Below, in pieces: positions 26,732 through 31,350 of a stretch of 64,000 nucleotides of DNA (its first letter is position 1; each line of letters begins with the position of its first letter). The notes below the pieces were generated by a model. It worked only from the letters and a program-made list of their open reading frames with translations, was not told where the DNA came from and searched no databases. Source of the stretch: a phage. The position numbers were made by a program, and so were the translations under genes. The stretch is from NCBI GenBank assembly GCA_038450185.1, contig GCA_038450185.1_4765.1; one strand, 5' to 3'.

Positions 26732-26762
26732 AATATAATCCTCTCTTTGTTTCGATATGTGC

Positions 26763-26790
26763 ATTATACACTATTGCGTTACGCTGTCAA
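26763..26790 (-). promoter_or_regulatory. sigma70-type early promoter, TTGACA / TATAAT
   Basis: -35 and -10 hexamers on the minus strand. Confidence 0.5.
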
Positions 26791-27795
26791 CTCTTTTTCA
26801 AAAGTTTTTACGATATACATGATAGTGCTCAATTCAGACGGCGCGACTGTTTCTGTGTAGCCATCCGGCATATCTTCTTTTGAGATATAGGAAGTTTTAC
26901 CTTTCATCGCTTCCTTGATCTTGTTCTCTAATTCTAAGATCTTTTGACCGTCTTGTAAAGTCAATTCATAAAAGATCTCGTGGTCGAATTTAGATTTCGC
27001 TGATTGGTTTCTCATTCGTTCTTGTGTTGTTAAATTGGTTATTCCAAATTTGATTCCATAAAAACATGATTTTTTAATTAGTTTTTGAATGTATAGTGTT
27101 CCGTGTTTTAAAGTGTTGTATCCAAATCTAGCACAACTTGAACATCTATTTCCTGATAGAAACCCGTTAATTGTTGGTGTAAATGTATGACCATTACAAC
27201 ATTGCAATTTTAATTTTGTTGTATTTCCTTTCCATTCACCTATAAATCCATTGAATAGTATGTTTTCTTTATCAAAGATTGGTTTAATTCTAATAATATA
27301 GTCATCTTTGGGTATTGATTTTAATTCTTTCAGTTTTAACCGGTAGCATTCTTGGCAGCGTCTTCCATTTTTGAAATTGTTAATTGTTGGTGTAAATGTA
27401 TGTCCATTACAACATTGTAGATTTAATTTTGTCGATGACCTTTTCCATTCACCTATAAATCCATTGAATAGTATGTTTTCTTTATCAAAGATTGGAGTTA
27501 ACTTATGTAGATGTTCATCTTCCGAAAAAGATTTCATCCTTCCATTCTTTATGTCTGCACATTTATGACAGCGATTTCCAGCGTTGAAATTGTTAATTGT
27601 TATTGTAAATGTATGACCATTACAACATTGCAATTTTAATTTTGTTGTATTTCCTTTCCATTCACCTATAAATCCAATAAACTTTATATTTTCTTTAAAG
27701 AATGTTGGTTTTAATTCTTCGTAGTAATTCACTGGAGATTTTGAATTGTGAGCTTTTCTAACCCATTCAATCTCATGTGCTTGACGTACTAACAT
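26779..27795 (-). CDS. T5orf172-like (GIY-YIG superfamily) protein with three tandem Cys-rich repeats
   Basis: Three copies of about 70 aa containing FIGEWKGNTTKLKLQCCNGHTFT..NRC..C; C-terminal GTLYIQKL...YGIKFGITNLTTQERMRNQ. Confidence 0.5.
   Translation of the reverse strand: MLVRQAHEIEWVRKAHNSKSPVNYYEELKPTFFKENIKFIGFIGEWKGNTTKLKLQCCNGHTFTITINNFNAGNRCHKCADIKNGRMKSFSEDEHLHKLTPIFDKENILFNGFIGEWKRSSTKLNLQCCNGHTFTPTINNFKNGRRCQECYRLKLKELKSIPKDDYIIRIKPIFDKENILFNGFIGEWKGNTTKLKLQCCNGHTFTPTINGFLSGNRCSSCARFGYNTLKHGTLYIQKLIKKSCFYGIKFGITNLTTQERMRNQSAKSKFDHEIFYELTLQDGQKILELENKIKEAMKGKTSYISKEDMPDGYTETVAPSELSTIMYIVKTFEKELTA
27160..27700 (-). repeat. three tandem direct repeats, about 210 bp each, inside the CDS
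   Basis: Near-identical blocks ...GTAAATGTATGACCATTACAACATTGCAATTTTAATTTTGTTGTATTTCCTTTCCATTCACCTATAAATCCA... at about 27170, 27380 and 27590. Confidence 0.75.
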
Positions 27796-27825
27796 AATTT
27801 TATCCTCCGTTGTTTCTATGGGTGC

Positions 27826-27853
27826 ATTATACATTACCACATCAGCATGTCAA
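27826..27853 (-). promoter_or_regulatory. sigma70-type early promoter, TTGACA / TATAAT
   Basis: -35 and -10 hexamers on the minus strand. Confidence 0.5.
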
Positions 27854-27881
27854 TACATTTTCATAAAATTTTATGCAATAA

Positions 27882-27906
27882 AAAAGCCTCCCCGAAGGAA
27901 GGCTTT
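27882..27906 (-). terminator. intrinsic terminator downstream of gene 32
   Basis: GCCTTCC-TTCGGG-GAGGC hairpin then T6 on the minus strand. Confidence 0.55.
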
Positions 27907-27914
27907 AAAATTCA

Positions 27915-28889
27915 TTACATCCCTAACAGAGCGTCAAGATCATCCAGATCAGAAGCGGAGGAAGTACCGCCACCCAGGTCCAGAGATGCCATCAGGTCAT
28001 CAGCGGAAGAATCTAACGCCGTGCTAGCTGCGTTAATACCAACTACAGTGCTAGCTGCGGTCATACCAGAATCGAATGCATTCATCTGTGCGTCAAAATC
28101 GTCAAGCTGGCTGTTAATCGCTGCCGCAGCACTGGAAGCCGCAGCACCAGCTACCATAGAAACGCCCATAGTTTTCTTAAATTTGGTTTCCAGTTCATCG
28201 AACGGTTTAAACTGGCTAGGCGCTACAATCTCACTCAGATCAACCATGTTTTCCATCAGATATTTCTGATATGCTTCGTCTTCAATTTTCGGAAGCTGTG
28301 ATTGCTGCATGAAACGAGAATCATCATAGTTCTGGTGTTTATCAACCTTCTTAGCTTTCAGGAGGAAGTTAGCACCGGAGAACACACAAGTTACATCGAC
28401 CGGAACTTCGCCCATGTCGGTATTCACGTTCACCATTGCAACGATCTTATCATAAATTTTCTGACCGAAGCGGAATTTGAATACCTTACCTTCATTTTCT
28501 GGTGCTTGAGGATCTTTCAGTACCAGAATATTTGCGTAGTAAGACGCTTTACGCTTAATCAGTTGCCATTCGGTTTTATCGGTATTGTACAAGTCTTTTT
28601 CGTTAATATATTTGCACACAGGGCAAGAATCAAAATCACCGTGGGTGCTAGAGCAGTTTTCCCAATACCATTTGCCATTAACTTTGAAGGAATGGTTTAC
28701 CAGTTTCACAATCGGCAGACCGTCTTCTGTCTTAGACGGCAGGAAGCGAATCAGGGCTTCACCGTTACCTGCTGCATCAGTCTTAATCTTCCACTCTTTC
28801 GGATCTTCTTTGGAGAAACCGTTGCCACCTTTCAGTGCGGCCAGTTGAGCTTGCAATTTGGAGCTATCTTGACGACGAAACATGTTCAT
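27915..28889 (-). CDS. 32: single-stranded DNA-binding protein
   Basis: IRFLPSK...[24 protein letters not shown] matches the T4 gp32 zinc-binding core; acidic C-terminus. Confidence 0.9.
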
Positions 28890-28949
28890 AATTATACCTC
28901 TTTATACATTAACTATTGATTAATTTACGTTTTATACTATATCAGATAC

Positions 28950-29546
28950 TTAATTGCTTGTCAATACTTTATCAATTATATCTAACAGTTTTGGCTTTCT
29001 ATTTTCAAATTCTAACATCTCTTCGGGAGAAATGTCAACTACTTCTGTTTTGTTGAAAAAGTTTGGGTCTATAGCATCAGCAACAAAGTTTCTCGCAAGT
29101 GCTGCCGCTTTCTCATGAACATATATTCCCAAATATATCAACTTCTTTCTTTCGACCTGAATATTGGCAACATATTTACCATCTCGTTTATAAAGACTAA
29201 CACCGATATATTCAGACGATCGACCTTTCTGTTTACCCATATTTCTTGAGTTTTGTTGCTCGTTCGCATCTCTCAAGTTTTCAATCCGATTATCTGTTAT
29301 AATTCGGTTAACATGGTCAACGTATTTTGGCATGTATCCATGATGCATAAAGAAAATTATTCTATGCTCTTTATGATGTTTACCATCGATACACACCAAT
29401 CTGTATCCATGACTAGGATTAACTCCACCAGCTCTAGATCCGACTTTATGCTTTCGGTTTGTCGATATCTTGCAAATCAGCTTACCGTTATCATATTTAA
29501 AGAGTTCATGACAACGAGCATACAATTCAGGATCATATGTTTTCAC
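28950..29546 (-). CDS. HNH endonuclease with AP2-type DNA-binding domain
   Basis: HNH motif HHKEHRIIF...DHVNRI..DNRIENLR; AP2-like YIGVSLYKRDGKYVANIQV...IYLGIY; lies between genes 32 and 59. Confidence 0.6.
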   Translation of the reverse strand: MKTYDPELYARCHELFKYDNGKLICKISTNRKHKVGSRAGGVNPSHGYRLVCIDGKHHKEHRIIFFMHHGYMPKYVDHVNRIITDNRIENLRDANEQQNSRNMGKQKGRSSEYIGVSLYKRDGKYVANIQVERKKLIYLGIYVHEKAAALARNFVADAIDPNFFNKTEVVDISPEEMLEFENRKPKLLDIIDKVLTSN

Positions 29547-30210
29547 CTTTTAACCTCGATATTTCTTTACACTCTTTAACTACTTTAACAAATAATGCTC
29601 TTGCTTTTGCGGCGTCAATAACAAGTAGTTTCTTGTACGCCTTCATTTTAACACTATAAGTTTGCCAAATCAAGTCTTTGGCTACCTTGTCGTGTTCGTC
29701 GATTATATTTAGAAAGCTATCTAACAACATAAACGACTCAAACGATATAATCCGATTTTGCAGTAGTTTAAAAATACCGCTTGTTTCGGTTGCGGGATTA
29801 TATGTAATTAGCTCTTTAAGAGTAACCCCGCGTTTCTCGGAGAAGTATACCAGACTTTTAATGTCATCGTCAAATCTTGTTGCTGCATCGGTTATCTTTC
29901 CTATGTATTCCATATAAAAGCCGTATGCGTCAACATCAGTGATTTCACCTACCCATGCATCGGTATTAGCTACCAGATTGCTTAGGAATAGGAAGTATAA
30001 TTCTCTTAGATTGTATTTTTCCGCTAATTTCGCGAAATAATACTTATCTCTGCGTTTATTGAATGCGGCATCAGATAACCGCATCCTCCAATTATATTTT
30101 ACGCAATCATAACGCCCGTTCATATGAGCTTTCATCATGCAATATAACATATACACAGATTTAGCATTAATTCGCATATCTGGATCTGGAGGAAGACGGT
30201 TTCTGATCAT
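29533..30210 (-). CDS. 59: helicase loader gp59
   Basis: Size (225 aa), position between 32 and 33, and similarity to the recalled T4 gp59 N-terminus. Confidence 0.65.
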   Translation of the reverse strand: MIRNRLPPDPDMRINAKSVYMLYCMMKAHMNGRYDCVKYNWRMRLSDAAFNKRRDKYYFAKLAEKYNLRELYFLFLSNLVANTDAWVGEITDVDAYGFYMEYIGKITDAATRFDDDIKSLVYFSEKRGVTLKELITYNPATETSGIFKLLQNRIISFESFMLLDSFLNIIDEHDKVAKDLIWQTYSVKMKAYKKLLVIDAAKARALFVKVVKECKEISRLKGENI

Positions 30211-30219
30211 ACATACCCC

Positions 30220-30489
30220 TTAAATATCGAGAGTGTTGGTCGGTTCGTCGATCACTCCCTTCCTGAGTGTTCTATTTACTATACATTCTTGTGTGATCTT
30301 GTCAATAATGGACACCGGAATATACTTCTGATAGTGACCATATTCTATAGAGTTTTCCTCTACAAACTGAGTGGTCGCTTCAAGATAAGTCAATCCCTCT
30401 TCAACAACCAGTTTTTCGATTGCAAGACCGTTTGCTGTTTTGTTCGCGGCTTTTACCGCATGTTCATTAAGCATTGAACACCCGATCAT
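30220..30489 (-). CDS. 33: late transcription accessory protein gp33
   Basis: Small acidic protein with EEGLTYLEATTQFVEENSI region at the T4-syntenic position. Confidence 0.5.
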   Translation of the reverse strand: MIGCSMLNEHAVKAANKTANGLAIEKLVVEEGLTYLEATTQFVEENSIEYGHYQKYIPVSIIDKITQECIVNRTLRKGVIDEPTNTLDI

Positions 30490-30747: not shown

Positions 30748-31350
30748 TTAACCCTCTTTCGTCATTAATTGAAAACCACGTTCAGCTTTTGAAATTTCGC
30801 TAGGACTTAAATCGTCACCAACATATTCTAGCATCATTTCTCGGATAATGTCAAGTGCTTTTTCATCACCTGATTTTAACTCGAACTCAAGTTCATAATT
30901 TGCGCTTGTGTTGATAGTATATCTACCTATTCCTGCATAATTAAATGCATCTGTGCATATTTCAACTAAGCCTACACCAGTATCAATTGTTCTAGCTACT
31001 CTCGCTGTCATCACATAAAATTGCGGTCTAAGTTGTGTTAAATTGACACCCAGACAATCAACAAATTCAGAAAAATCTTGATAATTACATAACACTATTT
31101 CTTCTCGGTTAAATAAACCGCTTTCGTGACTTCCATGTTTTATTAGAAATTTATTTGTCTTTTTGTCAAGACGTGCATACACTCCCTGTTTATGTAAAAT
31201 ATATTCTTCGTCATCATAATACGATTCTAGCTTATTATAGATTTTTCTGTCTACAATACTATAACAATCATATAACTTAGAACATGCGTCAAAAATAGAC
31301 TTAAGCCCTTTGTTTGACCTTGCATAGTATTTTAATTCAAGTTCTTTCAT
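30748..31350 (-). CDS. CYTH-like triphosphate tunnel metalloenzyme domain protein
   Basis: N-terminal ExExK signature MKELELKYY and C-terminal acidic strand ELEFELK; 200 aa. Confidence 0.4.
   Translation of the reverse strand: MKELELKYYARSNKGLKSIFDACSKLYDCYSIVDRKIYNKLESYYDDEEYILHKQGVYARLDKKTNKFLIKHGSHESGLFNREEIVLCNYQDFSEFVDCLGVNLTQLRPQFYVMTARVARTIDTGVGLVEICTDAFNYAGIGRYTINTSANYELEFELKSGDEKALDIIREMMLEYVGDDLSPSEISKAERGFQLMTKEG

Follow-up and report, generated by a model that had tools for sequence, protein, structure and literature searches.

In phage T4, the junction between genes 32 and 59 is the insertion site of segG, a homing endonuclease gene (HEG) whose product has its target in gene 32 (PMC2988022, Table 1). 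segG is a promoter-less cassette with the gene-32 promoters embedded in its coding region, and SegG drives marker exclusion and co-conversion (PMC2988022). In other free-standing enzymes of the Seg type, the cleavage sites lie hundreds of bp from the HEG (PMC2988022). T4 HEGs overlap upstream ORFs by 11–24 bp; mobA overlaps its upstream gene by 23 bp, with a predicted GUG start, and mobE by 1 nt, and the Mob genes are expressed from upstream host promoters (PMC2988022). MobA and MobE nick their targets, and I-HmuI nicks one strand (PMC2988022). Several T4 HEGs are regulated by late promoters or by hairpins that sequester the ribosome binding site (RBS); for the hairpins, I-TevI, segB and mobE serve as the comparison here.

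The HNH-AP2 class of homing endonucleases was reportedly defined by Magnani, Sjolander and Hake in the Plant Cell in 2004. The tally of such HEGs among T4-related phages is one in RB49, two in JSE, three in RB43 and six in RB16 (Petrov et al. 2010, PMC2993671, Table 5), and RB49ORF040c is listed as an HNH-AP2 HEG (Nolan et al. 2006, PMC1524935). A literature search found no cleavage or homing assay for the endonuclease described below or for any T4-group HNH-AP2 enzyme.

The DNA analyzed here, a stretch of 64,000 nucleotides referred to as the window, is part of the genome of a Krischvirus, an RB49-like member of the Straboviridae. Its positions 27900–30300 are 99.4% identical to Escherichia phage Skers and 95–99% identical to about 50 other Krischvirus records. 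The original prediction, made from the letters of the DNA, had placed an ORF of 198 aa between genes 32 and 59. This placement is borne out, with the ORF on the minus strand and initiated by GTG, both of the motif strings quoted for the protein, GKHHKEHRIIFFMHHGYMPKYVDHVNRIITDNRIENLR and YIGVSLYKRDGKYVANIQVERKKLIYLGIYVHEKAAALA, are found in the translation, and both neighbors, which are essential genes of replication, are identified by Pfam. The order of genes on the minus strand is dsbA, 33, 59, the endonuclease ORF and 32:

29533..30210, minus strand: gene 59 (helicase loader), the upstream neighbor; Pfam T4_Gp59_N and T4_Gp59_C, E = 4e-41 and 6.5e-29

29546..29533, minus strand: overlap of 14 nt between the end of gene 59 and the start of the endonuclease, GTGAAAACATATGA; from ORF coordinates, sequence and alignment

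28950..29546, minus strand: HNH-AP2 endonuclease ORF, 198 aa, GTG start and TAA stop; from the ORF list, Pfam and PHROG

27915..28889, minus strand: gene 32 (ssDNA-binding protein), the downstream neighbor; Pfam gp32, E = 1e-51

27906..27883, minus strand: terminator-like hairpin 3′ of gene 32; from a terminator scan

Several GenBank records annotate the same ORF as an HNH or homing endonuclease, and the counterpart in phage Skers, with a 99% identical protein, is called a “putative HNH homing endonuclease”. Two records, E26 and 011D4, carry the label “Fis family transcriptional regulator” instead, which is without Pfam support. A tblastn search of the endonuclease against the whole 64-kb window returned only the self match and no paralog.

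The HNH and AP2 architecture that had been claimed for the protein is confirmed by Pfam, by a structure model and by family profile matches. Three parts of the protein can be mapped onto the DNA:

29244..29366, minus strand: HNH (His-Me finger) catalytic core, aa 61–101, with D77-H78 and N86/R87/E89/N90/R92, followed by N99 (a candidate metal ligand) and N102

29088..29213, minus strand: AP2-type DNA-binding domain, aa 112–153, made of three strands and then a helix

28953..29057, minus strand: C-terminal extension, aa 164–198 (helix 174–197); from the alignment of 34 homologs and the structure model

The Pfam HNH_3 model (PF13392) matches aa 61–101 and passes its threshold (E = 2.2e-11, 43.6 bits against a cutoff of 24.8), and PHROG 99, “HNH endonuclease”, matches with E = 3.6e-50. 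The Pfam AP2 match (PF00847, E = 7.2e-5), at 23.4 bits, falls below the gathering cutoff of 33.3; a precomputed PF00847 match is present in 14 of 35 homologs. In a family alignment of 34 homologs, which consists of the window protein and 33 from the database, residues R62, D77, H78, N86, R87, E89, N90, R92, N102 and A148 show no variation, and N99 almost none. The profile made from this alignment matches I-HmuI (PDB 1U3E, E = 2e-7) and also the AP2 domains of WRI1 (E = 5.5e-8) and TEM1 (1.3e-4).

Residues D77, H78, N90, N99 and N102 align with D74, H75, N87, N96 and N99 of I-HmuI. In the latter enzyme (1U3E), the His is presumably the general base, with the Asp adjacent to it, and the Asn a metal ligand, all on a ββα scaffold. 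In the structure model, the AP2 region consists of strands at residues 116–119, 124–132 and 135–142 and a helix at 145–159, with pLDDT above 90, and it shows a three-stranded antiparallel sheet packed on one helix, as in solved AP2 domains. Both domain calls stand, since the profile matches solved HNH and AP2 domains and the structure bears out the low-scoring Pfam AP2 match. Judging from the alignment and the model, the protein retains its full set of catalytic D-H...N...N residues and an intact AP2 fold. The C-terminal extension of 35 aa is exclusive to the two alleles of the protein found in Krischvirus (see below) and is missing from every other homolog aligned. Its origin was sought among gp59 tails, intergenic DNA and all of the fetched loci, with no similarity found. 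The DNA that codes for the extension also holds promoter-like sites for gene 32.

Comparison of the 32–59 junction across related phages, proposed along with the original prediction, revealed a presence/absence polymorphism. The endonuclease is present in 12 of 59 Krischvirus records (about 20%), the count being of phage records that cover the 59/32 junction to at least 80%. It is always found at the same position, all 12 copies are full length, and the rest of the 59 are clean. Universal presence at this locus, which would have refuted the original prediction, does not apply, since only 12 of the 59 records are occupied, and at a frequency of only about 20% the element is not sweeping. Ten of the 12 carriers have the allele of the window, here called O1, with 98–99% protein identity to it, and the other two, E26 and 011D4, have a second allele, O2, with 84.6% protein identity to the window. 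Carriers are found among records assigned to the species Krischvirus RB49 (kvi, 011D4) and gec3s (Makalu_002, E26), whereas RB49 and GEC-3S themselves are empty.

The site is likewise empty in JSE, ELT3, phiS and Phi1, and the six empty genomes examined share the same junction. In the sampled outgroups T2, RB69, RB43, Acinetobacter phage AC4 and Erwinia phage Vettismorki, gene 59 is followed directly by gene 32. A search of 50,697 phage records turned up no close relative at other loci or in other phages beyond the 12, the next homolog being about 44% identical or less. No homolog closer than 44% was found in IMG/VR, and a database of 5.8 billion proteins contained only two clusters of close relatives, with the best other homolog at 49%.

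Alignments of occupied and empty junctions define the inserted DNA and the signals around it:

29540..29557, minus strand: rewritten 3′ end of gene 59, with seven substitutions and one extra base; from a table of variable sites

28971..29538, minus strand: DNA inserted relative to HEG-less relatives, 568 bp; from alignments of occupied and empty junctions

29009..29038, minus strand: second promoter-like site aimed at gene 32, TTGACA-18-TAGAAT with TG; 11/12, a consensus match only

28936..28964, minus strand: sigma-70-like gene 32 promoter, TTGACA-17-TATAGT with an extended -10 TG; promoter scan, 11/12 match

Microhomology leaves the boundaries of the insert uncertain to within a few bases, and the length differences between occupied and empty sites, 586 bp for O1 and 570 bp for O2, are accounted for by the alignment. 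The empty site reads ...AAAGAAATATCTCAATTAAAAACAGAAAC|AAATAGTTGACAAGTAAATTTAAATCTGTATAAT..., and there the -35 box of the promoter for gene 32 contains the gene 59 stop codon (TGA). At the occupied site the sequence is ...AAAGAAATATCGAGGTTAAAAGGTGAAAAC-ATATGATCC...[HEG]...GATAAAGTA-TTGACAAG..., where the 568-bp insert separates the penultimate gene 59 codons from this -35 box. The final gene 59 codon and its stop (ATATGA, 29538..29533) come from the insert. The rewritten end of gene 59 next to it is fixed in seven of the seven carriers examined and in none of the six non-carriers. The rewriting creates the Shine-Dalgarno sequence GAGG and the GTG start of the endonuclease, and it changes the gp59 tail from SQLK(T/A)ETNS at empty sites to SRLKGENI at occupied ones, a part of the protein beyond the Pfam gp59 C-terminal domain, whose last residue is 215.

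At the other end, the -35 TTGACA of the gene 32 promoter coincides with codons 194–195 of the endonuclease, and the endonuclease stop lies in the promoter spacer. An equivalent gene 32 promoter is annotated in GEC-3S. The second promoter-like site is located wholly within the 3′ coding region of the endonuclease, and its -35 is TTGATA in O2.

The leader and first codons of gene 32 (28890–28956) come in two haplotypes that differ by indels of 11–17 nt and in the N-terminus, MFRRQ or MFKRQ; one is found in O1 carriers and in empty ELT3 and phiS, the other in O2 carriers and in JSE, Phi1, GEC-3S and RB49. Translational autoregulation of gene 32 is known for T4 and RB69 (PMC535899), and the leader haplotypes could affect the site at which it acts. 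The acidic C-terminal tail of gp32 (28019–28047), rich in Ala, Ser and Asp, has in-frame length polymorphisms: relative to the window, 27 nt are missing in 011D4, and 27 nt are missing at a slightly shifted position in phiS.

The original prediction also implied read-through expression from gene 59. The overlap with the gene 59 stop is real, but translational read-through does not hold up because the two ORFs are read in different frames across the 14 nt. GTG is the sole in-frame start codon of the endonuclease upstream of its conserved N-terminus, with homologs aligning from about residue 7, and the Shine-Dalgarno sequence GAGG (29554–29557) lies 7 nt 5′ of this GTG (29544–29546). A terminator scan found no terminator-like site between gene 59 and the endonuclease or between the endonuclease and gene 32. 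The lack of a terminator after gene 59, together with the ORF having a Shine-Dalgarno sequence of its own, suggests co-transcription with gene 59, the probable partner, followed by independent or coupled initiation of translation. The search for an RBS-sequestering hairpin of the I-TevI, segB or mobE type was negative, as 101 nt around the start fold no better than shuffled sequences (z = 0.47). The late promoter sequence TATAAATA is absent from the 59-HEG-32 region, and late-promoter sites with one mismatch at 29501 and 29713 are unremarkable.

The two alleles are far more diverged from each other than the DNA around them. Between O1 and O2, dS is 0.75–0.78 with dN/dS of 0.12–0.13, and dN/dS within the alleles is 0.05–0.13. 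For the same pair of genomes, the flanks have a dS of 0.064 (gene 59) and 0.090 (gene 32), which makes the alleles about ten times more diverged at synonymous sites than the flanks. The dN/dS values and the contrast in dS therefore indicate purifying selection and a history separate from that of the flanks. The ORF is not a chance one, since it is kept in 12 phage genomes with dN/dS of 0.12–0.13 between alleles. Divergence is central, the ends of the ORF being near-identical between the alleles (the first 120 nt and the last 90 nt), and the amino-acid changes are concentrated in an N-terminal hairpin (aa 41–56) and in the AP2 strands (aa 118–145). The window copy has Cys25 (TGC, 29472–29474), whereas the six other copies translated have Arg (CGC). 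This change is probably harmless because position 25 varies across the family at large (W/R/H).

Toward gene 59, the haplotypes at distances of more than about 230 bp show no coupling to the presence of the HEG, and a single gene 59 haplotype is common to kvi (O1), 011D4 (O2) and RB49 (empty). Carrier-specific sequence on this side amounts to only 18 bp, and no extended tract of co-conversion linked to the HEG is visible. Toward gene 32, about 90 bp are linked to O1, yet this sequence is also found in empty ELT3 and phiS, and the O2 flank on that side is common to JSE-type empty genomes. Read from these haplotypes, the flanks are a mosaic with breakpoints near the HEG.

The 3′ third of gene 59 (29558–29772, 215 bp) is near-invariant in 13 Krischvirus genomes, carriers and non-carriers, with two singleton differences compared to about 27 variable sites in the other approximately 440 bp of the gene. 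Synonymous sites are frozen as well, and P is about 0.004 by an approximate Poisson calculation. The stretch may owe this to recent recombinational homogenization beside the HEG site or to an overlapping signal.

The ORF is probably an HNH-AP2 HEG, free-standing and inserted into a Krischvirus genome where gene 59 meets gene 32. The gene is best read as one that is or was mobile, an active or recently active HEG. The patchy presence, the separate history and the scattered carriers all point to the mobile homing endonuclease that the original prediction proposed.

In the proposed mechanism, the gene would be transcribed together with gene 59 from upstream early promoters, with low-level translation from the weak GTG, possibly coupled to termination of gene 59. 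When a carrier and a HEG-less relative infect the same cell, a specific site would be bound by the N-terminal β-hairpin module together with the AP2 domain, and the HNH domain would nick or cut the DNA of the HEG-less genome. The likeliest target site would be at or beside the empty 59/32 junction, ...GAAATATCTCAATTAAAAACAGAAAC|AAATAGTTGACAAG...; nowhere else are all carriers distinct from all non-carriers, and if carriers are immune, the site of recognition or cleavage would be expected to span the junction. Such self-immunity is not obligatory, given the distant cleavage sites of Seg enzymes (PMC2988022). Recombination-dependent repair of the T4 type would then copy the HEG and short flanks from the carrier genome, which would itself be protected by the insertion and the seven substitutions. 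A search for a GCC-box-like AP2 target near the junction turned up GC-rich 8-mers at 29609 (gene 59) and 28835 (gene 32); these are not evidence for a target, since GCCGC occurs 63 times in the window.

Once in place, the gene would not be easily lost. Clean loss of the HEG is disfavored because the insert holds the gene 59 stop and because promoter signals of gene 32, an essential gene, lie in or straddle the 3′ end of the HEG. This hard-to-delete arrangement appears to resemble the one described for T4 segG.

The same tight integration with gene 59 termination and gene 32 promoter signals could also be expected of a protein that has lost homing and been domesticated by the phage, to which it would be of benefit either through DNA binding or regulation near the gene-32 promoter or by excluding competitor phages or satellites without copying itself. 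The strong purifying selection over a deep divergence (dN/dS of 0.13 at a dS of 0.75) and the lineage-specific C-terminal helix fit such a role, as does the regulator label in two GenBank records, although Pfam gives that label no support. There are precedents in HEG DNA-binding domains that were co-opted as regulators elsewhere (PMC10448857) and in I-TevI, which doubles as an autorepressor (PMC2988022). Nevertheless, domestication is unlikely, as a useful gene would not be missing from about 80% of close relatives, and every catalytic residue is kept, as would not be expected of a protein that only binds DNA. Moreover, excluding a co-infecting genome and then repairing it from the carrier amounts mechanistically to homing, so that this part of the proposal overlaps with the mobile HEG favored here.

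It is less probable still, and decidedly doubtful, that the endonuclease is an ancestral Krischvirus gene that at no time moved within the genus and disappeared from most lineages through one or more deletions. All 12 copies share the exact position and junction, and there is no close copy at another locus or in another phage group (the nearest homologs being those at about 44% or less among phage records, 44% in IMG/VR and 49% in the protein database), as simple inheritance with loss would have it. However, gene 59 abuts gene 32 in the sampled HEG-less outgroups, and the empty sites have a complete and different gp59 C-terminus and an intact promoter, with no deletion scars. A synonymous divergence between the alleles about ten times that of their flanks, and carriers scattered over species-level groups and flank haplotypes, are also hard to reconcile with loss from a common ancestor. 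Finally, a decaying remnant of a formerly active HEG, now inactive and drifting to loss, is highly improbable in spite of the low frequency (12 of 59 records), the weak GTG start and the private R25C change in the window copy, given that 12 of 12 copies are full length, dN/dS is 0.05–0.13 in all comparisons, all of the invariant family residues are kept and the structure model is confident throughout.

O1 and O2 might be two homing endonucleases of diverged specificity that contest a single 59/32 slot, each locked in by the gene 59 stop and the gene 32 promoter signals. This is a tentative idea and an unlikely one. If it were true, the 59/32 junction would be, with T4 SegG taken into account, a place where nuclease genes of unrelated families have landed repeatedly and independently, and O1 and O2 would form a natural pair for learning how AP2 domains read DNA in the context of a nuclease.

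Two other loci near gene 32 and gene 59 deserve mention. Just 3′ of gene 32 on the minus strand (26779..27840) is an ORF listed as 353 aa, probably a second mobile nuclease. Translation likely begins at Met16 (27795), downstream of a TTGACA-16-TATAAT promoter that fits the consensus perfectly (27853..27826). CapR-homology (treble-clef zinc) repeats occur three times in tandem, at a period of 213 bp, and the protein matches Pfam CapR (E = 1.1e-22) and PHROG 681, “endonuclease” (E = 1.5e-73). CapR domains are linked to HEGs of the T5orf172 type (PMC10448857). The protein is 45% identical overall to a 392-aa “endonuclease” of GEC-3S, rising to about 90% over the C-terminal 100 or so aa, with the last 70 or so nearly identical. 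The cassette is bounded by 71-nt direct repeats (26747–26817 and 27810–27880) that are 70% identical. What occupies the interval from gene 32 to frd differs among phages: only 110-aa ORFs are present in JSE, kvi, G2494 and others, and CapR-repeat proteins of 460, 392 and 414 aa are found in Phi1, GEC-3S and phiS, respectively.

The second locus, between dsbA and rnh (30748..31350, minus strand), is an ORF of 200 aa that belongs to PHROG 14893, of unknown function, and has no Pfam match at E ≤ 0.01. Its counterpart in Makalu_002 is annotated as an “inorganic triphosphatase”. RB49ORF244c, which has a weak CYTH-domain match (0.0026; PMC1524935), may correspond to it. G2494 has two ORFs in the equivalent region, so a frameshift or nonsense mutation seems to have interrupted the gene there.

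The endonuclease is a clean, well-delimited addition to the catalog of free-standing homing endonucleases of T4-type phages. The class, the hotspot and the regulatory tricks have all been described already, and current understanding is unchanged. The insert is woven into its surroundings in three ways: it rewrites the final gene 59 codons to form its own RBS and start, it supplies the gene 59 stop, and it ends inside the gene-32 promoter. Such weaving shows how HEGs become difficult to delete. Carriers such as kvi and Skers and non-carriers such as RB49 and JSE, which are otherwise 98% identical, would be a handy pair for the first biochemistry on a phage HNH-AP2 enzyme.

That T4-like phages host other free-standing endonucleases at this locus, as had been stated, is true of T4 and of Klebsiella phage KP179. 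In the T4 record, the GIY-YIG enzyme SegG lies between genes 59 and 32 in the same orientation as the HNH-AP2 ORF, and the occupant of the slot in KP179, a SegG homolog, is 54% identical to SegG over 121 aa. The HNH-AP2 protein shows no homology to T4 SegG (BLASTP E = 11). Two nuclease families that are not related have thus converged on the 59/32 junction, with GIY-YIG enzymes there in T4 and KP179 and an HNH-AP2 enzyme in some Krischvirus phages.

I-HmuI of Bacillus phage SPO1, to which the catalytic core aligns, is intron-encoded, unlike the free-standing HNH-AP2 gene, and has helical and helix-turn-helix DNA-binding modules rather than AP2. MobA and MobE of T4 are likewise free-standing HNH HEGs in T4-type phages, but their C-terminal DNA-binding regions are not AP2, and their loci differ from 59/32. 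The HNH-AP2 class has the same N-terminal HNH_3 and C-terminal AP2 domains, occurs in the same phage group and is similarly free-standing and sporadic. However, the HNH-AP2 HEGs tabulated for RB49, JSE, RB43 and RB16 are located at other loci, and RB49, JSE and Phi1 are empty at 59/32. The other Krischvirus paralogs of this class are about 40% identical to the 59/32 protein, in which the 35-aa C-terminal helix is unique. T4 SegG (formerly 32.1) shares the slot, the orientation, the form of a promoter-less cassette and the embedded gene-32 promoter signals with the HNH-AP2 gene and is its positional analog, not its homolog. SegG was shown experimentally to cut in gene 32, at a distance from its own gene.
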